64,000 nt of DNA from the IMG/VR virus record IMGVR_UViG_3300029171_000001. One strand, given 5' to 3'. A model generated the notes under the pieces. It saw only the letters and a list, made by a program, of their open reading frames with translations, was not told the DNA's origin and made no database searches. This stretch comes from a virus. Numbering within the stretch: position 1 is the first letter of the stretch; every line of letters begins with the position of its first letter. This document shows positions 1-37,644 of the stretch, piece after piece. A program made the position numbers and the translations under genes.

Positions 1-197
1 ACCATTTTACCCTCTGACATTTTTAATAAATTCAGTTCTCTATTGGGGTTTTTCAAACACCACGCTATATGATTTCCAAATTGTTGGTGTTTTTCATATT
101 GTATCAATTCTTTGCAATGTTTACACTCTTTTTTCATGTTTTTATTTATAAATATAGTGAAAAACTGAAATTGAAGTGTGTTTATTAATATTTTTTG

Positions 198-270
<73 letters not shown>

Positions 271-374
271 ATGGAGCAACCTCAGATAACACATCGAATT
301 TATGTATACTTCATTCAACTCAACTACGAGTTACTGACCGTAGTTTTGGAGTTATCCTCTGGTTGCATTTTTTG

Positions 375-459
375 AGCAGTGAATGGGGCTCGAACCCACG
401 ACATCCGCCTTGGCAAGGCGGTACTCTACGACTTTTGTCTCCAACTGAGCTATCACTGC
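375..459 (-). tRNA. tRNA-Gly(GCC) with D-loop hairpin insert
   Basis: Full cloverleaf, loop TTGCCAA, U73; D-loop carries GAC-AAAA-GTC. Confidence 0.85.
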
Positions 460-466
460 ATATTTG

Positions 467-540
467 AGCAAGTAACGGGGATCGAACCCGCTCTGTTCCA
501 GTTTGGAAGGCTAGCGCACCACCACTTATGCGTCACTTGC
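467..540 (-). tRNA. tRNA-Gly(TCC)
   Basis: GCAAGTG/TACTTGC acceptor, loop CTTCCAA, U73. Confidence 0.88.
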
Positions 541-593
541 ATGGAGAGGGACAGGTTATTTATACCTTTAAAGGACTCCCTCAGACCTTTTTG

Positions 594-666
594 AGCGGAA
601 GACGAGTCTCGAACTCGCCACCCCCTGCTTGGAAGGCAGGCGCTCTACCAAATGAGCTACTTCCGC
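594..666 (-). tRNA. tRNA-Gly(TCC)
   Basis: Canonical cloverleaf, CCTGC-CTTCCAA-GCAGG. Confidence 0.95.
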
Positions 667-765
667 TGGTTCGGGTCGTTTACCTTATCGGAAAGGTAAA
701 TATGAATTGAATTCACTACAAATCACCTTACATGGCTACATGCTTAACACTGACCCTTCTGTTTG

Positions 766-853
766 AGCACCAGATCGGACTCGAACCGATAACCTTTTGA
801 TTGGAAGTCAAACGCTCTAAGACTTTCGTCAAACCATTAGGAGCTACTGATGC
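766..853 (-). tRNA. tRNA-Gly(TCC) with D-loop GAAA hairpin
   Basis: GCATCAG/CTGGTGC acceptor, TTTGA-CTTCCAA-TCAAA, D-loop GAC-GAAA-GTC. Confidence 0.85.
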
Positions 854-1016
854 AGTTTAACCGATTTTTCTTTAATTTTCAGAGGGCGGCAATCGGTTTA
901 GCCTTTCTGCTACTCTTAAATAATTGGTATGGGTATTACATTTCTGCAAAACTACAAACCCATCTTTACAGCGATACACATCTACCCGTAGTTAGGTCAC
1001 AGATATGGCGCAGTAG

Positions 1017-1135
1017 TGGGGAGAGCTAGACTCGAACTAACATAGCCATTTAAGGCAGCGTGGTTACGACCACACAATGCTTACCGTACCGAGCTTCGAT
1101 GATCAGTCGAAAAGCGTGTACATTGCCATCTCCCC
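1017..1135 (-). ncRNA. 119-nt tRNA-Tyr-like RNA with large D-loop insert and 6-nt anticodon loop
   Basis: GGGGAGA/TCTCCCC+A73, T-arm GTTAG-TTCGAGT-CTAGC, GCC/GGC extra arm, loop TCGTAA. Confidence 0.6.
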
Positions 1136-1163
1136 AAATATTTTTTTTGATTTTTTTAGACGT

Positions 1164-1625
1164 TTATTCGTCTTTTTTGCTGTTGGCGTATTTTACACCC
1201 ATGATAGTTCCAATGATACTAAAACTATTTGTAAGAAGTATGCTAAACATATTACTCCATGTTGATTCTATGATTTTTACCTCATAACCTTTTACAAGAG
1301 CCAGAACATATAATCCTGTTGTAATTATTCCAACACCAAGTATAATCCCAAGAGCAACTTTTACAATTTGACCAACTAATTGATTTTGAGTTTTCTTTTG
1401 TAAAACCTCTAATTCGTGAAGTGCATCTTCTTTTTCTTGAGCATTTTTTTGACTTTGTTCAAGATGCCACTTGTTTATTCTACCAACACTTGTACCCAAC
1501 TCACGAGCCACAGAAAATTGGTTTTCAAATTCTTTTCCATTTATTTTACCAGTTCTCAAATATTCCTCATAAAGCTTTATCTTTTCTGGGGTAAATTCTG
1601 AATTTGTCATTTCTTCTTTTGCCAT
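1164..1625 (-). CDS. hypothetical membrane protein
   Basis: 153-aa ORF, two hydrophobic C-terminal segments. Confidence 0.7.
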   Translation of the reverse strand: MAKEEMTNSEFTPEKIKLYEEYLRTGKINGKEFENQFSVARELGTSVGRINKWHLEQSQKNAQEKEDALHELEVLQKKTQNQLVGQIVKVALGIILGVGIITTGLYVLALVKGYEVKIIESTWSNMFSILLTNSFSIIGTIMGVKYANSKKDE

Positions 1626-1696
1626 TGCTTGTGTTTTTTATCAATAATAAATATTTGATAAATTATTCGGGCACTGGTGTTTTGAAAAATTTTTTG

Positions 1697-1772
1697 TGGA
1701 GACGATGAGAATTGAACTCACCTCACGCTGATTGCAAATCAGCATCGCCTAGCCATTGGTACATGCGCCCCC
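1697..1772 (-). tRNA. tRNA-Ala(TGC)
   Basis: GCTGA-TTTGCAA-TCAGC, G3:U70, A73. Confidence 0.92.
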
Positions 1773-1833
1773 AATTAATTTCAAGGCCCCCGCAGTGATG
1801 AGCTGCAAGTTTGGTTATCATCCGACCTTATCG

Positions 1834-1919
1834 TGGAGACGACGGGACTCGAACCCGCATTAGAACTTTCGTCCGTCCTGATTGCAAATCAGGTGCCTAG
1901 CCAATTAGACTACATCCCC
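1834..1919 (-). tRNA. tRNA-Ala(TGC) with extra (variable) arm
   Basis: G3:U70, CCTGA-TTTGCAA-TCAGG, variable region GGAC-GAAA-GTTC. Confidence 0.88.
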
Positions 1920-1924
1920 ATTTG

Positions 1925-1998
1925 TGGAGGTAAACGGATTCGAACCGATGACCCCCTGCTTGCAAAGCAGGTGCTCTAGCCAGCTGAGCTATACCCCC
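1925..1998 (-). tRNA. tRNA-Ala(TGC)
   Basis: Canonical, CCTGC-TTTGCAA-GCAGG, G3:U70. Confidence 0.96.
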
Positions 1999-2119
1999 AA
2001 TTTAAAAATGTGGCCTGGCATTGTGAGGTTTAACCATTGTATGTCTCTTGCATCAATAGCCAAGTTCACCAATTTTGTCACCGTAAAGAGAATGAATAGG
2101 TAACTACCACATTTATTTT

Positions 2120-2524
2120 TTATTTCCACATTCCACCTGAATGTAATTTTTCAATTTCTTTTTCAAGTTTCTTTTGTTTTTTTCTTTGAATAAAGTCATC
2201 AAACTCTTTCATTAAAGGTTCTGGAATTTCAATTCCTTTATCTGAAAACTCTTTTAAAATTTCTTCCTTTGTAAAACTATGTTCAACAATTCCATCTGTC
2301 CACTGATCTCTCCAAAGCCCCCAACCTTTTTTACCAATCAAAACTGACTTCATAATGTTTGGGTGTTTTGTATAAATCTTCTTACCTCCACCATATTGTC
2401 CATTTTCAAACTTTCTGAAACAATTTTTAACCTCTGGACCATTTATATCAAAATAGACTTCTATCGGTGTTCCACAAAACGTTATCAATCCTTTTCGATT
2501 AATGTCGAAGAAAAATTTAAACAT
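2120..2524 (-). CDS. hypothetical protein (true start may be near 2658 via a 1-nt indel)
   Basis: 134-aa ORF; frame stays open upstream to 2677 without an ATG. Confidence 0.7.
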   Translation of the reverse strand: MFKFFFDINRKGLITFCGTPIEVYFDINGPEVKNCFRKFENGQYGGGKKIYTKHPNIMKSVLIGKKGWGLWRDQWTDGIVEHSFTKEEILKEFSDKGIEIPEPLMKEFDDFIQRKKQKKLEKEIEKLHSGGMWK

Positions 2525-2688
2525 CTTATTGAAACTATCAGAATATTTCTGAAGCTTCCTATCTAACTGTGTTCCAATTTCTTTTTTTCTTTGCTCAATT
2601 CTTTTGAGTCTTTCATTGGTTAGCTTCTCGCTCCCCAGCGCTCTTTCTCGCCTTTCATAATTTTTATTTTTAAGTGGTTAATAATTTG

Positions 2689-2803
2689 TCACCAAGAGAG
2701 GACTTGAACCTCTGATCATACGGAATTTTCCGTTACATCCACACGATTTCTTTTTTCTCTCTGGTTACGTTTACCAAATACACTTCAAAGATCTAACTTG
2801 GTG
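2689..2803 (-). ncRNA. tRNA-like RNA (acceptor and T-arm only, irregular middle)
   Basis: CACCAAG/CTTGGTG+A, AGAGG-TTCAAGT-CCTCT; no 7-nt anticodon arm. Confidence 0.5.
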
Positions 2804-2808
2804 TTTTG

Positions 2809-2884
2809 TAGAGTAGACGGGACTCGAACCCGCATTAATCTCCTCATCCCAAATGAGGCGAGACACCAATTCCTCTACTACTCT
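2809..2884 (-). tRNA. tRNA-Pro(TGG)
   Basis: CCTCA-TTTGGGA-TGAGG, T-loop TTCGAGT, A1:U72. Confidence 0.88.
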
Positions 2885-2926
2885 ATATTCTAGGTTTGGT
2901 AATTGACAGACCTAGAAAACTGCACG

Positions 2927-3011
2927 TGGTTGGGGTGATCGGATTCGAACCGACTCAGCCTAAGCAACGGTTTTACAGACCGTCCTAACTCTCCAGCGTT
3001 AGCGCACCCCA
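2927..3011 (-). tRNA. tRNA-Tyr(GTA), CCA encoded
   Basis: ACGGT-CTGTAAA-ACCGT, variable arm, ends ACCA. Confidence 0.9.
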
Positions 3012-3014
3012 ATA

Positions 3015-3092
3015 TGGTGGGATAGAAGGGACTTGAACCCTATGCGGTTGAGTTTTACAGACCCTCCGACTCTATTTCCTTGGCGTTATCCC
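3015..3092 (-). tRNA. tRNA-Tyr(GTA), degenerate
   Basis: Loop CTGTAAA, T-loop TTCAAGT, ACCA end; mismatches in several stems. Confidence 0.6.
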
Positions 3093-3225
3093 AGTTACAA
3101 TTTTTTAATGGATTGTGAACCATTTTTTGTTTAGGAGTAGGTATTAATCTTTACAGACAAGTTACCTTCCCGTGTACTTTAGGTAGTCTTAATTACATCA
3201 CTTCGTAATCTCGACAACTCCCAAG

Positions 3226-3301
3226 CGGTCCTAGAGGGAGTCGAACCCTCGTTCTGCCCAGATAGACAGTCTGGTTCCCATCCCAGTGGGCTCATAGGAC
3301 C
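3226..3301 (-). tRNA. tRNA-Asp(GTC)
   Basis: CCAGA-CTGTCTA-TCTGG, G73. Confidence 0.9.
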
Positions 3302-3327
3302 ATTTGAGTTTTACGTTCTCCAACGAG

Positions 3328-3403
3328 CGGGCTATACGGGATTTGAACCCGTGATCTCTACCGTGACAGGGTAGCAGGGACGGCCAGACTCCCCTAATAG
3401 CCC
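3328..3403 (-). tRNA. tRNA-Asp(GTC)
   Basis: CTACC-CTGTCAC-GGTAG, G73. Confidence 0.95.
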
Positions 3404-3436
3404 AATTTGATTTTTGTCTAGGTTTTCTCCTAGTTG

Positions 3437-3521
3437 CGGGAGTGAAGGGACTCGAACCCTCGACCTCTGCCGTGACAGGGCAGCATTCTAGGCTTGCGCC
3501 AACCAACTGAACTACACCCCC
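3437..3521 (-). tRNA. tRNA-Asp(GTC) with D-loop GCAA hairpin
   Basis: CTGCC-CTGTCAC-GGCAG; D-loop GGC-GCAA-GCC. Confidence 0.88.
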
Positions 3522-3534
3522 ATTTTTATTCTTG

Positions 3535-3603
3535 TCATCAAGACTGGATTTCCACCAGTAACCTCCCTGTGCACGGGGCTCTAAAAATTATAGCTACTTG
3601 ATG
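3535..3603 (-). ncRNA. 69-nt tRNA-like RNA with shortened anticodon arm
   Basis: CATCAAG/CTTGATG+A, D-arm, CCC-GTGCACA-GGG, T-arm ACTGG-TGGAAAT-CCAGT. Confidence 0.55.
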
Positions 3604-3607
3604 AAGT

Positions 3608-3690
3608 ATGATGGTAATTGTGAAGCTATGTTTTTCGATTGGAAGTCAAATGCCCTAACGGGCTAGAAGTAAGCAAACACATGGCCATCA
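3608..3690 (-). pseudogene. degenerate tRNA-Gly(TCC)-like remnant
   Basis: TTTGA-CTTCCAA-TCGAA arm and TGATGG/CCATCA ends, no T-arm. Confidence 0.35.
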
Positions 3691-3696
3691 ATAAGT

Positions 3697-3775
3697 ACAC
3701 TGCAGTGGGATTTTCACCCTCGGTTACATCTCATTCCTAACATGGAATGTATCTTAAAAGTTAGACGACACAGCG
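3697..3775 (-). ncRNA. degenerate tRNA-like RNA
   Basis: Wobble-rich acceptor, D-stem GTCT/AGAT, CATTCC/GGAATG arm with even-sized loop, T-loop TGAAAAT. Confidence 0.4.
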
Positions 3776-3854
3776 ATTTAATTTCCTACGGGGTTGAAAC
3801 TTACGTATGAAGAGCGACTTCACAGAGATAAATAACAACTCACCCGTTTATGTG

Positions 3855-3949
3855 TCAGGAGTGAGGGAGTCGAACCCTCGGCAAGCAACAACTGAGTGCT
3901 CGCACTGGTTTCCAAGACCAGCCGTTTAGACCAACTCACGCAACTCCTG
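3855..3949 (-). tRNA. tRNA-Pro(TGG) with 8-bp extra arm (95 nt)
   Basis: CAGGAGT/ACTCCTG+A73, CTGGT-CTTGGAA-ACCAG, GCGAGCAC/GTGCTTGC arm. Confidence 0.85.
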
Positions 3950-3993
3950 ATATGAAGTTTTTGATTTAAAAACAAAAACAACAAAACAAATCG

Positions 3994-4066
3994 TCAGGGT
4001 GACAGGGGTTGAACCTGCGACCTCCTGGTCCCAAACCAGGCGCTCTCCCAACTGAGCTACACCCTG
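3994..4066 (-). tRNA. tRNA-Pro(TGG)
   Basis: Canonical, CCTGG-TTTGGGA-CCAGG, C1:G72, A73. Confidence 0.95.
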
Positions 4067-4153
4067 AAGTGCTGTGGGTTTTGGAGTACCCACAGCTAAA
4101 TTTCCCAATATGTCAAAGATCTCATGTTATTTTTTACCTGAAATAACCAAAAC

Positions 4154-4184
4154 AAAAAACCCGCTCTTTTTAGGGAGCGGGTTT
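4154..4184 (-). terminator. intrinsic terminator of attenuator 1
   Basis: AAACCCGCTC-CCTAAAAA-GAGCGGGTTT followed by TTTGTTTT, between leader and first tRNA. Confidence 0.9.
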
Positions 4185-4214
4185 GTTAATTCCTTTTGTT
4201 TATATCACTTGTTT

Positions 4215-4346
4215 TTATCCAAGCTTTCTAAAAGTCAAAACATATCCGCTCCCATAGCTATAATCATAAGCTGGGGCATACCCTGCACCGCCCATCATCG
4301 GGGCAATTGCTGGAGTAGTTGCTGAATATGTAGTTACTGTTTTCAC
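4215..4346 (-). CDS. leader peptide MKTVTTYSATTPAIAPMMGGAGYAPAYDYSYGSGYVLTFRKLG (GTG start)
   Basis: Hand-translated 43 aa; Pro/Ala/Gly/Tyr/Asp-rich; contains GGGAGCGG complementary to the terminator arm. Confidence 0.8.
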   Translation of the reverse strand: MKTVTTYSATTPAIAPMMGGAGYAPAYDYSYGSGYVLTFRKLG

Positions 4347-4426
4347 CTGTTTTATTTTCTTTTAATTGTTAAAACCTATTTCTAGGTTCTTTTGATAAAT
4401 AGTAGAAAAAATTGTTTTTCGATAAT

Positions 4427-4455
4427 TTATACGTACAAAGATAGAATAAGTTTCA
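4427..4455 (-). promoter_or_regulatory. promoter TGAAAC-N16-CGTATAA with embedded TATCTTTG
   Basis: Near-identical ~48-bp block repeated at 31109-31156; TAnnTTTG is the Bacteroidetes -7 element. Confidence 0.75.
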
Positions 4456-4516
4456 ACAAGAAACAAGTTTTTTTTGAAAAAATCTTCTAAGTGATTAAAA
4501 ATCAATCCAATTAATT

Positions 4517-4720
4517 TTATTTAGACACATTTTTTGTTTGGATAAATTCGATCAATTTGTTTAATCTACACTCACACATAAAAGCATCATCATGAATGCA
4601 AACTTTTTCAAACTTCATTATAGACTCCTTTGGATATTCCTGACCATAAGAAGTGACACTATATAACATCTGCTTAATCACATCAAGATCCTCGTCTTTT
4701 AATACGTAAATGTTTGCCAT
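4517..4720 (-). CDS. hypothetical protein
   Basis: 67-aa ORF tiling with neighbours. Confidence 0.65.
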   Translation of the reverse strand: MANIYVLKDEDLDVIKQMLYSVTSYGQEYPKESIMKFEKVCIHDDAFMCECRLNKLIEFIQTKNVSK

Positions 4721-4723
4721 TTT

Positions 4724-5176
4724 TTACCAATTAAGTTTTTTAGCAGTGTTTTTAAATATCTCACATACTTGTTCGGAGATTTGAAATCTGTCCTTGTTTA
4801 AAGAGATAGATTTATAAATATCTCCATCTGCATGTCTCTCGGTTGCAGCCTTCCAATCCATCAACATTTCAATTAAATCGAAAATATCAAATCCATTTAT
4901 GCCATTTTCATAATGTTCTGGATGATGAGAATTGTTTGCATAATGATGATCTAAAGCTGGCTTAAGTTCTTTAAGCGATTCTTTATATTCAGGAGAACCA
5001 TAAGTAAGCCCTTTTAATTTTTCTGTAGCTTTATCAAACCACTCCTTTTCTGGATTTTCAAGTTTGGATTGATCATGTTTGTTTGCTCTATTTAAAAGTT
5101 CTATTGAAGCCTCGTTTAAAAGTTGAGCAACTCTTTTTATGTGTTTTAATGTATCAACTGTACTATCGTATGACAT
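4724..5176 (-). CDS. DUF5662-like protein (HD-like)
   Basis: HDQSKLE, HHYANNSHHPEHY, DLIEMLMDW motifs; start re-set to MSYDST. Confidence 0.7.
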   Translation of the reverse strand: MSYDSTVDTLKHIKRVAQLLNEASIELLNRANKHDQSKLENPEKEWFDKATEKLKGLTYGSPEYKESLKELKPALDHHYANNSHHPEHYENGINGFDIFDLIEMLMDWKAATERHADGDIYKSISLNKDRFQISEQVCEIFKNTAKKLNW

Positions 5177-5225
5177 ATTTTTTTGTTTATATAAAAATAT
5201 AAACAAAATATAACAAAAACAAATT

Positions 5226-5771
5226 TTAATTTTTTGTACTCAACATCAAATCCTTCACATTCTGCACACAAAATCCATGACCTTCTCTTCTGATCAATTC
5301 ATAAATCACCCCTGTAAGCTCTGACGGTTTTGTAAACACTTGCTCTAACCCTGGGCACTTCAACGGTTCTGGAGATAAAAATTCACCATACCCCTTATCT
5401 TCCCACTCTTTCATTGTTGCTGCAACATCATCAACCTGAAACGCCATATGGTGAATTCCGCCTACACCATCTCTTGCTTTTACCCAATCTCCGACGATTG
5501 AATTCTCTTCACCATCTGATATGAAAATTTCTGGAGCCACATGATAGACCTGGTTAATATCGCCAAATGGAAAGTTTATTGCCCAAGGCAAATTCTCGCT
5601 CACCTTTTCAGATGGCACAAGCACAAGACAATTGGCCTCTGTACCATCATCAAATTGTAATTTAAAGCCATCTGGAAGATCTTCAGCAATTTTATACCCA
5701 AGGCAATCAACAAAGAATTGGGCTGTTTTATGACGGTTTTTGACCCTGTAGGCCACGTGGTCTAATCTCAT
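5226..5771 (-). CDS. VOC/glyoxalase superfamily protein
   Basis: LDHVAYRV, GIHHMAFQVDDV, C-terminal YELI. Confidence 0.8.
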   Translation of the reverse strand: MRLDHVAYRVKNRHKTAQFFVDCLGYKIAEDLPDGFKLQFDDGTEANCLVLVPSEKVSENLPWAINFPFGDINQVYHVAPEIFISDGEENSIVGDWVKARDGVGGIHHMAFQVDDVAATMKEWEDKGYGEFLSPEPLKCPGLEQVFTKPSELTGVIYELIRREGHGFCVQNVKDLMLSTKN

Positions 5772-5849
5772 TTTTGTAAAGGTTTATTTTTAAATAGTAC
5801 AAAAAAAATCCCCGTGTTTTCACACGAGGAATTCTTTTTTATTGTTTTT

Positions 5850-6539
5850 TTAAAAAGACCTAAACAATTCAAACAACAAAAACTTACAACGTTTTAATTT
5901 TGGAGAAGAAATTTTAGATGTATTAACAAATTGTAAATTTGTGTCAACATCCCTTTGTAATTCTTCTTTATAACACAATAATTCTTCAAAAGTAAACCCA
6001 TCTGTCCAGCGAGTAAAAATTGAGGTTCGATTAGTTTTATAATTTTCTATTGCGGTTTTTATTTCTGGCAATTGGTACTGATTATGATACAAAATACAAA
6101 TCTCATTCAATAATTCTATAAGCGCATTATGGTGCACAACATGTTCTACTAATTTAACTTCATACTTTTTAATATCATTAACTATTTCTTTGCATCTAAT
6201 AATATGGTCTTGATCACGTATTTTATTAACTTGGGGAGGCTCTTTAACAAATAATTTTCCATTTTTTAAAATAACATATTTGTGTAATACAGCATTAACT
6301 ATACCTGTAGCTTTAATCAATTCAACAATACGACTATTAATGAAAAAACAAATTAATCCTATAATTCCAAGCGGCACTTTGAAGTCTGTTTCTGGATTCC
6401 AATTTTTCCAAAATAAACTAAGAAATATTGCAACTGCTAAACATGCTTTATGCCAAGTGAGATAATTATAATAGCGTAAACCCGCAAATCCAAACAACAT
6501 CAAACAAACAATCTCCCATTTATATTGTATGATTTCCAT
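5850..6539 (-). CDS. hypothetical membrane protein
   Basis: 229 aa, hydrophobic N-terminus. Confidence 0.7.
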   Translation of the reverse strand: MEIIQYKWEIVCLMLFGFAGLRYYNYLTWHKACLAVAIFLSLFWKNWNPETDFKVPLGIIGLICFFINSRIVELIKATGIVNAVLHKYVILKNGKLFVKEPPQVNKIRDQDHIIRCKEIVNDIKKYEVKLVEHVVHHNALIELLNEICILYHNQYQLPEIKTAIENYKTNRTSIFTRWTDGFTFEELLCYKEELQRDVDTNLQFVNTSKISSPKLKRCKFLLFELFRSF

Positions 6540-6540
6540 A

Positions 6541-8157
6541 TTATTTCATTTTTATTGCTGTGATATACATAAATTTCTCTCTAATATCAGTAACACCGAG
6601 AATATCAAAGCCAGCTTGGATTAATAAATTTTCTAGTTCTTTCTGTTTTTGTTCAATTAACTCTGCTTCCCCAACAGTTTCCGCTATATATATAATACCT
6701 TTTCGCTTTAAAACTCTATAAGCTTCCTTAAGATAATATTCTTTGTCTTTTTTTGTACCCCAAAGCGATAAAGAAAAAACAGCTATATCATGAGTTTTGT
6801 CTTTTATAAATTTAGATATATCACTCATATCACATTCAATAACTGACTCATCAAAAGCAACATGGTCAATAGAAGTAACTTTATTGTTTGGAATTTCTTT
6901 CTTCAGCTCATTGCCACCACAACCAAAGTCAATTATAACATCAGAAGAATCTGTGATTTTTTTGGCAATCTCTTCATACGGAGCTTCTTTCCAGTAATCC
7001 ATATTCTCTTTTCTGAGTTTATGATATTCAAAAAATTCATTTGGGTTATCTTTGAAAAATTTGCCCATCTTTTTAGCAGAAGTGGTTCGTCCCATCTTAT
7101 TTATTTTTTGGATTTTACTAAGAACAAAATTATTATTCACAACTTGTTCTTCGCAATTTAAATTTCTTGAAAAACTAACCATGCCCCCCTCTAAACCAAA
7201 TGTATTCCAAGGTTCACAAGGCAACTTTTTCTTCTCCTTTTTTTCAATTAACTTGTACTTTTTTATCCAATTATCAGCAGATAAAACACTGTGTTTTTTT
7301 GCCAACGAAATACATTCTTCTATTGAGGATACATCAAAACCATAAGAGGTACCAAGCAAACTTGAAAACGCTGTAATTCCACCATCTAAACCAAATGTAT
7401 TCCAAGGCTCACAAGGCAACTTTTTCTTCTCCACTTGTTGAATTATCTTGTAATTTTTTACCCAATTAAATCCTGTGAAAATTTTATTTTTTTTCGCTAT
7501 TTCAACACATTCTTCTATTGAGGATACATCAAAACTATAAGAGGTACCAAGCAATCTTGAAAATTCAACTTGTCCTCCTTTTAAGTCAAATGTTTTCCAC
7601 GGACTTGATGGCAATTTCTTTTTCTCCTTTTTGCCGATATCTTTGTGTTTTTTTGCCCAAGAAAAAGCGGTAGTAATATCATATTTACTTGCCAGTAAAA
7701 CACATTCTTCGATTGAAGATACATCGAAATCATAATTTTTATCAATCAATCTTGAAAATTCAACTTGTCCTCCTTTTAAGCCAAATGTTTTCCACGGACT
7801 TGATGGCAATTTCTTTTTCTCCTTTTTGCCGATATCTTTGTATTTTTTTGCCCACTCCACTGAAGATATAACACTATATTTTTTTGCCAATTTAACACAT
7901 TCTTCTATTGAGGATACATCAAAACTATAAGAGGTACCAAGCAATCTTGAAAATTCAACTTGTCCCCCTTCTAAGTCAAATGTTTTCCACGGATGAGATG
8001 GGAGTTTTTTTCTTTCATTTTTACCTATGACTTTACAATTCTTTATCCAAGCTTTTGCTGATATAATCTCATATTTCTTTGCCAATGCGACACATTCTTC
8101 GATTGATGTTGCATTAAAATCATAGGAACCATCGAGTAACATTGAAAATTTAGCCAT
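6541..8157 (-). CDS. 65-aa repeat array plus RRP8-like SAM methyltransferase (3' half of split gene)
   Basis: Five repeats, then IIDFGCG, IECDMS, DIAVFSLSLWG, EAYRVLK. Confidence 0.75.
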   Translation of the reverse strand: MAKFSMLLDGSYDFNATSIEECVALAKKYEIISAKAWIKNCKVIGKNERKKLPSHPWKTFDLEGGQVEFSRLLGTSYSFDVSSIEECVKLAKKYSVISSVEWAKKYKDIGKKEKKKLPSSPWKTFGLKGGQVEFSRLIDKNYDFDVSSIEECVLLASKYDITTAFSWAKKHKDIGKKEKKKLPSSPWKTFDLKGGQVEFSRLLGTSYSFDVSSIEECVEIAKKNKIFTGFNWVKNYKIIQQVEKKKLPCEPWNTFGLDGGITAFSSLLGTSYGFDVSSIEECISLAKKHSVLSADNWIKKYKLIEKKEKKKLPCEPWNTFGLEGGMVSFSRNLNCEEQVVNNNFVLSKIQKINKMGRTTSAKKMGKFFKDNPNEFFEYHKLRKENMDYWKEAPYEEIAKKITDSSDVIIDFGCGGNELKKEIPNNKVTSIDHVAFDESVIECDMSDISKFIKDKTHDIAVFSLSLWGTKKDKEYYLKEAYRVLKRKGIIYIAETVGEAELIEQKQKELENLLIQAGFDILGVTDIREKFMYITAIKMK

Positions 8158-27550: not shown

Positions 27551-27811
27551 TTATTGATAATTTTTGCGATAAATGCAGACATATTTTACATCATTTTTTA
27601 AATGATCAAAAAAATACTTTTCACATTGTTTAAATGTACCAATTTTCACTAATTCATCAGAAAACATCTCATAATATAAACCATATTTCCCATCTTCTCT
27701 TAAACGAATATAGGCATATCCAGAACCATTACTGTCCTTATTTTTTTTAAAACAATAACTAACCTCATTTAAGATTATACTTTCTTCAATTACAATATCT
27801 TTCTTTTTCAT
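27551..27811 (-). CDS. hypothetical protein
   Basis: 86-aa ORF abutting trpS. Confidence 0.65.
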   Translation of the reverse strand: MKKKDIVIEESIILNEVSYCFKKNKDSNGSGYAYIRLREDGKYGLYYEMFSDELVKIGTFKQCEKYFFDHLKNDVKYVCIYRKNYQ

Positions 27812-28551
27812 TAATTTTTATTACCAAACAACTCCACCATTCTACGAGCAATTGCCTCTTTAAGTTGCAAATTTAATGAAAATTCTTGAATATCCAAACC
27901 CAACTCCCTGGCAATCATCTGTATATTTTTCAAACCTTCTTCATTCATGTTTGCTTTTTTTATCTTTCCCATATAATCTTCATCAAAAAGATATAACACA
28001 TGTTTTTCACCATCTGATTTTGACATTTTCTTCGTAGGGTCAATCAACGACATTACCTTATCCACATGTCCAAACTCATATGTATAATCATCTCTACCAC
28101 CAACACGCTTACAAATATCGTTTGCAAGCTCTATATGAGCAACCTGGTCCCTGCCAACAATAATTATGTCTGGATCATTCATCATAATATCAGCTGCCAT
28201 TAAAACTGGGTATAAAAGCAAACCCATGTCGTACTCAACCTTGTCTTTTTTATCTTTATACTGAGGCATCTTTAACAGTGTAGCAATATTTACCTTGCAG
28301 CAAAGTTTGAAAAAAAGTTCTGTATACAAAGGTGTTTGGTGCACAATTTTTTTGCACCCCAAACGAATAAGCTCTTGTTCGGTTTTATCTGAATAACTAT
28401 CGGTTGTCAAAGAATGATAATTGGCAATCAAAAAAGTAACATCATGACCTTGTTCTTGTAACTCAAGACCTTTTTTAAGACAACCTAGATAGTTACCTAT
28501 GTGAAGTTTGTTAGTCGGTTGAATGCCGATTAATATTTTTTTTGTTTTCAT
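27811..28551 (-). CDS. trpS: tryptophanyl-tRNA synthetase, compact (246 aa)
   Basis: GIQPT..LHIGNY, YPVLMAADI, VG.DQ..H.EL, KKMSKS; start re-set to MKTKK because the ORF-track extension lies in a tRNA. Confidence 0.93.
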   Translation of the reverse strand: MKTKKILIGIQPTNKLHIGNYLGCLKKGLELQEQGHDVTFLIANYHSLTTDSYSDKTEQELIRLGCKKIVHQTPLYTELFFKLCCKVNIATLLKMPQYKDKKDKVEYDMGLLLYPVLMAADIMMNDPDIIIVGRDQVAHIELANDICKRVGGRDDYTYEFGHVDKVMSLIDPTKKMSKSDGEKHVLYLFDEDYMGKIKKANMNEEGLKNIQMIARELGLDIQEFSLNLQLKEAIARRMVELFGNKN

Positions 28552-28553
28552 CG

Positions 28554-28638
28554 CACGTCGAAGAGGATTCGAACCCCTGTGAGACCTAAGTCTGCTGGTT
28601 TTGGAGACCAGTGCTATCAACCACTCTGCCATCGACGT
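28554..28638 (-). tRNA. tRNA-Trp(CCA) with long variable arm
   Basis: CTGGT-CTCCAAA-ACCAG, A1:U72, G73, AGAC-TTAG-GTCT arm; ends 2 nt before the trpS ATG. Confidence 0.88.
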
Positions 28639-28716
28639 ATATAGATGTTTAAAATTACGGATTAGAATTTTTAAAGCCTCGGTCTTGTCGCCGCTTCCTT
28701 AATCTATCACATCTTG

Positions 28717-28789
28717 CACGAGAGACAGGAATCGAACCTGCAACCTTCGGTTTTGGAGACCGCCACTCTACCAGTTGAGCTACTCTCGT
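28717..28789 (-). tRNA. tRNA-Trp(CCA)
   Basis: Canonical, loop CTCCAAA, A1:U72, G73. Confidence 0.93.
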
Positions 28790-36261: not shown

Positions 36262-36282
36262 ATATTTTAAAGAACATTTTTG

Positions 36283-36354
36283 AGATCCATGTCGGGTTCG
36301 AACCGACGACCTTGGCTTTTAGAGGGCCTTGCTCTGCCGCTGAGCTAATGGATC
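36283..36354 (-). tRNA. amber suppressor tRNA (CTA anticodon)
   Basis: GATCCAT/ATGGATC, U73, GCTC/GAGC D-stem, loop CTCTAAA, 3-bp anticodon stem plus mismatches. Confidence 0.8.
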
Positions 36355-36999: not shown

Positions 37000-37262
37000 T
37001 AGTAAATTTGTGCTATTGTTTCATTGTTGTTTTCGTAAATCTCAATTCTTCCCTTGAATTGAATACTGCCCTTTGTTGTTGGATTTTCTGGAGTTTCTTT
37101 TGTTGAGAATCCAATTTGAGAATCAACATGATTAACATAATAGGTTTGACCCTTGTGCTTGATTGTCCACATCGGAATAGAAGGATCCGATAAATGTCCC
37201 TTGTTAAAGTGGAACACAATTCTACTAACTTCTTCAGATTGCATTATGATTTTATTTTCCAT
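36999..37262 (-). CDS. hypothetical protein
   Basis: Start re-set to MENKII. Confidence 0.7.
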   Translation of the reverse strand: MENKIIMQSEEVSRIVFHFNKGHLSDPSIPMWTIKHKGQTYYVNHVDSQIGFSTKETPENPTTKGSIQFKGRIEIYENNNETIAQIY

Positions 37263-37644
37263 CTGCAACCTCCTTTCCATGAAAATTTTGAAAAGCTGAA
37301 GTATACTCTCTAAACGCCAACGGCAAGTTTGAGGTAAGCCTTTTCGCCTCTTCAGATGGCTCCAACGCAATAGCTGTTAAAGCATCGTTAAAGTCTGGCT
37401 CGGTAAACGCAGAACATAAAATGCCCCTTGTTTTAGCTTTAAATAATAATTCTTGTAATGATTTTTCGTTCTCGCAAGAAAGAAGAACGATATGATTGGA
37501 TTTGAAATACCAATCGTTTTGAACAACTTCGTGTTCTTTTTGAAATTGCTTGCCAGCATGGACAAGCTGAGCACCTTGAGCTCCTGGGTGGAGGTCTCTC
37601 CTGGTGATGAGGATCAATTTTGATTTGTCGTTAATCTACAACAT
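37252..37644 (-). CDS. Pth2-like peptidyl-tRNA hydrolase with in-frame TAG at codon 3
   Basis: LITRRDL..GAQGAQ..HA, IVLL, FTEPD, TAIALEP, LT.NLPL; ATG TTG TAG ATT AAC in frame upstream of the TTG at 37617. Confidence 0.75.

Follow-up and report, generated by a model that had tools for sequence, protein, structure and literature searches.

The DNA analysed here, referred to as the window, is the 64,000-nucleotide viral record IMGVR_UViG_3300029171_000001 from IMG/VR, and the gene in question is a 95-nt tRNA on its minus strand which combines the proline anticodon UGG with the long variable arm of a class II tRNA (Table 1). ARAGORN drew this gene as tRNA-Pro(tgg) at 3854-3949 on the minus strand. 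Rfam RF00005 matched it at 3855-3949(-) over model positions 1-71 of 71 (E = 1.4e-8; gathering score 29), the alignment carrying 21 inserted nucleotides in the variable region. The window carries at least 21 tRNA genes, three of which are tRNA-Pro(UGG): a 74-nt gene, a 77-nt gene and the 95-nt long-arm gene. The canonical 74-nt tRNA-Pro sits 44 nt upstream of the long-arm gene in the same array. With a G+C content of 33.7%, nearly all coding on one strand and phage-type replication genes, the window looks like a fragment of a giant, uncultured freshwater phage.

Reading the sequence, we found that the acceptor stem of the long-arm tRNA is CAGGAGU/ACUCCUG, giving C1 (3949):G72 (3856) as the first pair and A73 (3855) as the discriminator. 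No CCA is encoded, the sequence after A73 running C-A-C. The acceptor/T branch is 7/5 with a standard T arm, U8 and G9 are present, and the D arm, with its 3-bp stem, G13.A22 and long loop, is of the class II type, in which a 3-bp D stem with a mismatch at 13:22 is accompanied by an enlarged D loop. Position 37 of the anticodon loop is A and not G. The variable region comprises 25 nt, consisting of U44 (3904), a hairpin and C48 (3880). The sequence-only reading had proposed a tRNA of proline identity with a class II architecture, and this is borne out by ARAGORN and Rfam, by C1:G72, A73 and the UGG anticodon, and by the long D loop and 25-nt variable region. Its description of the extra arm as a perfect 8-bp helix was wrong, because the eighth pair, a C-G, forms only with one U bulged; the 3' strand which it quoted, GTGCTTGC, is absent from the sequence, and the real strand is GUUGCUUGC, which gives seven contiguous pairs including one G-U. 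The single-sequence fold of the whole tRNA is unremarkable (z = -1.95).

Table 1 Features of the window discussed in the text, with positions counted from its first letter.
Feature	Position	Strand	Evidence and remarks
Long-arm tRNA(UGG), 95 nt, class II-shaped	3855..3949	-	ARAGORN; Rfam 53.1 bits; own covariance model R1 104.7 bits; sequence reading
Anticodon UGG in loop CUUGGAA (C32, A37, A38)	3912..3914	-	Sequence; ARAGORN (anticodon position 36)
Variable-arm hairpin: 7-bp stem GCGAGCA/UGCUUGC plus eighth C-G pair beside bulged U, 6-nt loop	3881..3903	-	Minimum free energy fold; covariation; RNAalifold
Canonical class I tRNA-Pro(UGG), 74 nt, C1:G72, A73, G37	3993..4066	-	ARAGORN; Rfam 67.2 bits
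Third tRNA-Pro(UGG), 77 nt, A1:U72, G37, 8-nt variable loop	2808..2884	-	ARAGORN; Rfam 54.9 bits
43-codon mini-ORF (4215-4346; 3 Pro codons CCA, CCG, CCA), then terminator-like hairpin (4157-4184)	4157..4346	-	Directly upstream of the array

We searched for relatives of the long-arm gene with a pattern made of the anticodon arm and T loop. This identified 19 IMG/VR loci which do not differ in arm length; the longest contig among them measures 362,763 bp. When the pattern was relaxed to NGG anticodons and to A or G at position 37, it yielded one further IMG/VR locus only, a G37 variant (L154). A scan of metagenomes gave at least 120 loci, 89 of which passed acceptor- and T-stem checks and reduced to 61 distinct sequences; after dropping an unrelated 100-nt sequence (L335), 60 remained, and all counts out of 60 given below refer to these distinct metagenome sequences among the matches listed. 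In total the family comprises 21 IMG/VR loci and at least 60 distinct metagenome sequences, mostly from huge uncultured phages, and one metagenome sequence (L331) is identical to the long-arm gene of the window. A37 was present in 20 of the 21 IMG/VR loci and in 60/60 metagenome sequences, G37 being confined to L154. The same pattern had 10 matches in 185,579 species genomes: nine arose by chance, with no tRNA at the site, and the tenth was a 362,763-bp phage contig binned in a metagenome-assembled genome (MAG). The long-arm tRNA-Pro family is restricted to phages. It should be noted that this one contig is present three times over (L157, L007 and L302): IMG/VR and the metagenome collection both contain it, and it is also contig 1 of a MAG which represents a species and bears the title Candidatus Paceibacterota; its placement in that MAG is probably a binning artefact, although conceivably it is a hint to the host.

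The variable arm of these tRNAs is kept under selection. In an alignment of 17 distinct IMG/VR sequences, 98.3% of cells were paired over the structure as a whole and 98-100% in the 7-bp acceptor stem and 5-bp T stem. For the 8 pairs of the arm helix the figure was 96.3%, and 6 of these 8 pairs had changed on both sides. The covariation score was reached by 0/500 shuffles and collapsed when partners were shifted by 1-3 columns; the sequences are related, so these shuffle controls overstate significance, and the double changes are plain in the alignment. RNAalifold, with no structure supplied, returned the same five-arm cloverleaf with a 7-bp arm. All 60 metagenome sequences had a variable region of 23-25 nt, a class II tRNA being one whose helical variable region exceeds 10 nt, and all had G13.A22, with 9-11 nt between positions 13 and 22. 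These results also bear on whether the arm is an intervening sequence whose removal yields an ordinary class I tRNA-Pro, an objection which the sequence-only reading had itself raised. Excision of the 23-nt hairpin would leave a variable region of 2 nt (U44 and C48) and restore no canonical tRNA, the class II-type D arm found in 60/60 sequences is sensible only if the arm stays, and the helix meets positions 44 and 48 in just the way seen in tRNA-Ser. In addition, the tRNA-Tyr of the phage is class II, which points to a bacterial host, and splicing of such inserts is not known from bacterial hosts. Nothing was found in favour of excision. Removal of the arm as an intron is therefore very unlikely.

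Within the arm, the tip, with its bulged U and the motif GCAC...G...GUUG, is nearly invariant and more conserved than the base, and in a scan for this motif (at least 116 loci, mostly noise) 6/6 motif-bearing tRNAs among the matches listed belonged to the long-arm Pro family. Such a pattern could reflect a role outside translation, for example as a decoy or sponge which occupies a host protein that binds or cuts tRNAs, as an amino-acid donor in a non-ribosomal reaction, or as a handle for a phage protein gripping the arm tip. Engineered tRNAs do tolerate protein-binding hairpins in the variable arm (PMC7590224). However, the elements used in translation are intact and invariant in the family (U8, A14, G18G19, the T loop, the anticodon loop of 7 nt including U33, and the 7/5 branch), there is no known protein partner and the gene lies within an ordinary tRNA array, which makes a non-translational role improbable.

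The two ends of the molecule which carry proline identity are those of a tRNA-Pro. In the alignment C1:G72 was found in 17/17 sequences while 6/7 acceptor pairs covaried, and A73 was likewise found in 17/17. Among the metagenome sequences C1:G72, A73, G15, C48, U8 and A14 were, like G13.A22, each present in 60/60, and G35 and G36 occur throughout the family, all members of which have UGG. The strong determinants listed for bacterial ProRS (prolyl-tRNA synthetase) are G72, A73, G35, G36 and G15:C48 (PMC9976931). In a related phage (L167) the acceptor end of the long-arm tRNA is identical to that of the canonical tRNA-Pro of the window (3993..4066) at 15/15 positions, and the same letter-for-letter match was seen in some relatives. 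Canonical class I tRNA-Pro(UGG) and the long-arm form have in common C1:G72, A73, G35, G36, G15:C48 and the anticodon, but the former has a 4-5-nt variable loop, U32 and G37, whereas the latter has a 25-nt helical arm, a 3-bp D stem, C32 and A37. The family departs from ordinary tRNA-Pro in two respects, having neither the class I body with its short variable loop nor G37.

The body, on the other hand, is of the serine type. The second-best matches of the family covariance model (R1) were tRNA-Ser(UGA), with 63.7 and 59.9 bits in the two genomes examined, compared with 35-49 bits for class I tRNA-Pro and 39.9-44.9 bits for tRNA-Leu. Core identity, computed without the variable arm, anticodon and acceptor stem, was 0.65-0.78 to class II tRNAs of the phages versus 0.48-0.56 to class I tRNA-Pro (rank 29-42 of 43). 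The anticodon arm, CUGGU-CUUGGAA-ACCAG, is the arm of the 98 phage tRNA-Ser(UGA) loci sampled except for a change of A36 to G, and this accounts for the A37 of the long-arm tRNA-Pro. One nucleotide on each side joins the arm to the core, as in phage tRNA-Ser; the extra arm itself is longer than in all 98 of the sampled tRNA-Ser(UGA) loci (pattern gap of 27 versus 17-24). The long-arm tRNA-Pro is a chimera of a class II serine-type core with the acceptor end and anticodon of tRNA-Pro.

We then considered which amino acid the chimera is likely to carry. C11:G24 is an element of tRNA-Ser, and in the family it was found in 0/60 sequences, as were G1:C72 (0/60) and G73 (0/60), while G2:C71 was found in 10/60. 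Both G1:C72 and G2:C71 are elements recognised by bacterial SerRS, the seryl-tRNA synthetase (PMC9976931). By contrast, the tRNA-Ser genes aligned from the window and a relative keep G2:C71 and A3:U70 in 6/6 cases and G73 in 5/6. Three class II tRNA-Leu genes of the relative (anticodons AAG, UAA and CAA), read by eye, have A14-A15, whereas G15 was present in 60/60 long-arm Pro sequences. When two conserved phage proteins were aligned with bacterial homologues, CCN codons coincided with Pro in 110/158 aligned cells, so the code is standard, and CCA is the main Pro codon (291/484 Pro codons). No ProRS or SerRS was found among the 62 open reading frames (ORFs) of the window, and no PF00587 core on 5/5 related viral records (two of them estimated complete) or on contig C1 of genome G001; as no phage-encoded class IIa synthetase core of the ProRS/SerRS type was found, a host enzyme must charge the tRNA. 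Judged from these sequence elements, the long-arm tRNA is probably charged with proline by the host ProRS. The sequence-only reading had also allowed that the tRNA inserts Ser or Leu at Pro codons, and such mis-acylation is disfavoured by the retained ProRS set, the absence of SerRS elements, the replacement of A15 by G15 and the CCN codons at Pro positions.

The case for serine is that SerRS would read the Ser-type body and long arm and so place Ser at CCN codons, making the tRNA nature's equivalent of the mistranslating tRNA-Ser(UGG) built in the laboratory, and dual charging with Pro and Ser is conceivable. The core and anticodon arm are indeed like those of tRNA-Ser(UGA) and the arm joins the core in the tRNA-Ser manner. 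SerRS identity is described as mainly arm-based, with the anticodon ignored (PMC9976931), and a yeast tRNA-Ser given a UGG anticodon is still serylated (PMC6827378). Yet the family is largely without G2:C71 and entirely without G1:C72 and G73, elements which the tRNA-Ser genes of the same phages retain, and the allo-tRNAs which have been judged to be Ser acceptors carry G73 or U73 (PMC5389517). Charging with serine would leave the invariant C1:G72 and A73 without a reason for their retention, and re-shaped Ala, Cys, Gln and Trp tRNAs, described below, also copy their cognate acceptor ends. The occurrence of CCN codons at Pro positions argues the same way, although this comparison is blind to low-level mistranslation. 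We consider insertion of Ser unlikely.

Charging by LeuRS, the leucyl-tRNA synthetase, deserves attention for another reason: a class II body with A73 is a leucine signature, and A73 is invariant in the family, so that Leu might be inserted at Pro codons in the manner of the nematode nev-tRNAs. It is G73 which keeps LeuRS off tRNA-Ser (PMC9976931), and A73 is found in all 115 nev-tRNAs, which accept Leu and no other amino acid (PMC3333845). Against this, the model scores are nearer to Ser (59.9-63.7 bits) than to Leu (39.9-44.9 bits), G15:C48 was found in 60/60 sequences compared with A14-A15 in the three tRNA-Leu genes of the relative, and A73 is equally explained by Pro identity, which alone explains C1:G72. 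On this comparison of elements leucine appears less likely than proline, and charging by LeuRS seems highly unlikely.

Several points weigh against proline charging and a functional tRNA. G37, which counts as a determinant in one of the tRNA-Pro isoacceptors of E. coli (PMC9976931), is absent; the 8-bp arm could hinder charging by ProRS; and A73, when combined with a class II body, is the discriminator of leucine too. Some serylation is possible, because SerRS relies mainly on the arm and tertiary shape (PMC9976931) and the junction of the arm is Ser-like. The conservation evidence is affected as well, since, in addition to the overstated shuffle controls, the search patterns fixed the anticodon arm and its invariance is therefore partly by construction. 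In one scan based on the arm-tip motif, the only variant among the matches listed was A39-to-G, and the anticodon was UGG in 6/6 motif-bearing tRNAs; a scan with a relaxed anticodon gave at least 119 loci and has no bearing on how rare other anticodons are on this scaffold. Finally, four RNA-labelled runs over 2700-4500 had no RNA contig on 3855-3949, which proves nothing either way, as tRNAs seldom enter standard libraries and a lack of contigs is no sign that a transcript is absent. The only contig touching 3859-3919 (X16) is labelled as probably DNA.

A shorter tRNA-Pro(UGG) lies within 3 kb of the long-arm gene at 19/19 loci, and the long-arm gene is therefore a spare and not a replacement. 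Taking these results together, we propose that the gene is a functional and conserved phage tRNA which decodes Pro codons, mainly CCA, and which serves as a Pro-accepting, structurally distinct spare isoacceptor on a chimeric body; we give this reading a probability of roughly 0.55. Under this proposal the long-arm tRNA would be transcribed with the adjoining tRNA array, trimmed and supplied with CCA by a CCA-adding enzyme. A dependence on this enzyme follows for the phage tRNAs in general from the fact that, of the first 20 tRNAs drawn by ARAGORN in the window, 19 have a single C after the discriminator and no CCA, the exception being tRNA-Tyr at 2927-3011, which shows CCA. The mature molecule would fold into an L-shape with a protruding 8-bp arm and could be charged by the host ProRS through G72/A73, G35/G36 and G15:C48. 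It might then sustain Pro decoding when the class I tRNA-Pro is damaged or limiting, for instance through defence nucleases which target tRNAs. Our best guess at its purpose is that it would insure the phage against tRNA damage directed at one shape or one loop; as a side benefit, A37 would free the tRNA from m1G37 methylation by TrmD.

Escape from such nucleases had been suggested by the sequence-only reading as an explanation of the architecture. This is plausible, as it fits the redundancy with normal tRNA-Pro, the altered anticodon loop and the many re-shaped isotypes. It has been proposed that loop changes of the kind seen here (C32 and A37 versus the canonical U32 and G37) protect phage tRNAs from the anticodon nucleases of the host (PMC10264068). 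The long-arm tRNA also resembles phage tRNAs which have been proposed or shown to evade tRNA-targeting defences, in being an extra phage copy of a host tRNA with an altered anticodon-loop context, as would suit a nuclease-insensitive replacement (PMC10264068, PMC11464382, PMC11555353). In the cases described, however, a few loop nucleotides are changed, whereas here the whole architecture is, and no tRNA-Pro-targeting nuclease is known for the host. Defence escape as the purpose of the long-arm tRNA is a tentative suggestion, with the odds against it.

Proline is not the only identity to have been re-shaped in these phages. We compared the window with the 45-kb tRNA region of a related 362-kb phage, which holds 55 tRNAs, and found long-arm versions of Ala, Cys, Gln, Trp, Met, Glu and Val tRNAs as well. 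The long-arm forms share the 1:72 pair and N73 with their class I partners in 5/5 isotypes which could be aligned, the elements retained being G3:U70 with A73 for Ala, U73 for Cys, U1:A72 for Gln, A1:U72 with G73 for Trp, and C1:G72 with A73 for Pro. Selection has therefore fitted the re-shaped tRNAs to whichever synthetase their anticodons call for, and this comparison is the strongest argument that the long-arm tRNA-Pro accepts proline. Examples in the window include an 87-nt tRNA-Ala(UGC) at 1833-1919 (-) with a helical variable arm (GGAC/GUUC with a GAAA loop) and the same G3:U70 and A73 as its two 75-nt neighbours. There are also two tRNA-Trp(CCA) genes (28553-28638 and 28716-28789), one of which is class II-shaped and 86 nt long with A1:U72/G73 like the normal one. 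Both lie directly upstream of a synthetase ORF of the TrpRS/TyrRS type at 27811-28632 (-) (PF00579, E = 4e-39; 273 aa as listed), the start of which overlaps a tRNA, and this ORF and tRNA-Trp(CCA) may form a private enzyme-tRNA pair.

Other tRNAs are altered in different ways. Two genes called 'Gly(acc)' (374-459, -) and 'Ser(aga)' (3436-3521, -) by ARAGORN are better read as tRNA-Gly(GCC) and tRNA-Asp(GUC), each with a 12-nt hairpin inside the D loop and a D region of 22 nt compared with 9-12 nt. The relative L167 (G001:C1) has, next to its normal long-arm tRNA-Leu genes (83-87 nt), three others whose length of 74-78 nt is that of class I (7218-7293, 7358-7435 and 7512-7585), a re-shaping in the reverse direction. 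This suggests a general policy of holding each identity in more than one shape. One may go further and suppose that huge freshwater phages of one clade maintain an additional, re-housed set of tRNAs, in which class I identities (acceptor end and anticodon), among them Pro, Gln, Trp, Ala, Cys, Met, Glu and Val and others in relatives, are carried on a Ser-type class II scaffold or with D-loop hairpins and Leu is carried in class I length. The phage would thereby have a reserve for translation that is self-marked or proof against nucleases, beyond the reach of host defences which target tRNAs or of the phage's own attack on host tRNAs, and the Pro member of the set would show a class II synthetase such as ProRS accepting an 8-bp arm. 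We regard this wider idea as possible but doubtful.

The remainder of the array and its surroundings contain further features of note. The 77-nt type of tRNA-Pro (2808-2884) recurs in related loci. The gap at 3522-3854 holds no convincing ORF, and no RNA family scored above threshold there. The leader region with the mini-ORF and terminator-like hairpin was covered at ~4099-4301 by contigs from two metatranscriptome studies (runs X19 and X20) at ~99% identity, a weak hint that this region is transcribed, as DNA carry-over is possible. Elsewhere in the window two more genes are related to translation: a 538-aa protein at 6541-8157 (-) with a C-terminal Methyltransf_8 domain and a weak match to the PHROG 'tRNA methyltransferase', and a PTH2-type peptidyl-tRNA hydrolase at 37252-37617 (-). 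A tRNA with the anticodon CUA lies at 36282-36354 (-) between two tRNA-Cys genes and is labelled 'Pyl' by ARAGORN; it is a possible amber suppressor, and the related phage also has a CUA tRNA (L169, 2313-2385). A megablast search with positions 1-6000 of the window found among cultured phages only short matches to canonical tRNA-Ala and tRNA-Pro genes (17 records, ≤ 1% coverage).

Textbooks tie the long variable arm to tRNAs for Leu, Ser, bacterial Tyr and Sec. That one amino-acid identity is possible on either class of tRNA is already indicated by tRNA-Tyr, which is class II in bacteria and class I in archaea and eukaryotes; there the switch of class separates the domains of life, whereas here both classes of tRNA-Pro stand side by side in one genome. 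We found no description of a class II tRNA-Pro or of re-scaffolded phage tRNAs in the literature covered, which took in few subscription journals. Among the closest parallels are the nev-tRNAs, class II tRNAs derived from tRNA-Leu which bear foreign anticodons and are charged only with Leu (PMC3333845). Like the phage family they are natural class II tRNAs which bear anticodons of class I amino acids, are conserved in a lineage and occur beside normal isoacceptors. They are eukaryotic, however, and with a Leu body and Leu determinants they are charged against their anticodon, whereas the phage family has a Ser-like body with a cognate Pro end and anticodon.

The allo-tRNAs and selC* tRNAs are likewise long-armed Ser/Sec-like tRNAs with many anticodons, which came from metagenome mining and have also been seen in phages (PMC5389517). 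They have an 8/4 or 9/3 branch with G73 or U73 and are taken to be Ser acceptors (PMC5389517), and the identity of the long-arm Pro family as allo-tRNAs was ruled out by its 7/5 branch, C1:G72 and A73. In the case of tRNA-Sec, with its 13-bp acceptor/T branch, a 6-bp D stem and a UCA anticodon (PMC7609411), the 7/5 branch, 3-bp D stem and UGG anticodon rule out the match. The mistranslating tRNA-Ser(UGG) engineered in yeast also combines a Ser body with a UGG anticodon (PMC6827378, PMC9258585) but, as described there, retains the Ser acceptor stem and G73 and inserts Ser, whereas the phage tRNA has swapped in a Pro acceptor end. The long-arm Pro family fails a defining feature each of the allo-tRNAs and the engineered tRNA-Ser(UGG), and probably of the nev-tRNAs as well.

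The natural exceptions known so far, the nev-tRNAs and allo-tRNAs, have been read as mis-acylating or Ser-accepting, and the long-arm Pro family looks instead like a natural transplant of identity. The finding suggests that phages are able to move an amino-acid identity onto a different tRNA shape. If the long-arm tRNA is charged with proline, tRNA class and amino-acid identity would be separable in nature, and the family would offer a ready means of testing whether and how an additional arm is accommodated by ProRS, EF-Tu and the ribosome, as well as natural scaffolds for the engineering of orthogonal tRNAs. If the re-shaping protects against defences which cut tRNAs, a change of the whole architecture would join anticodon-loop mutations as a proposed form of phage counter-defence.

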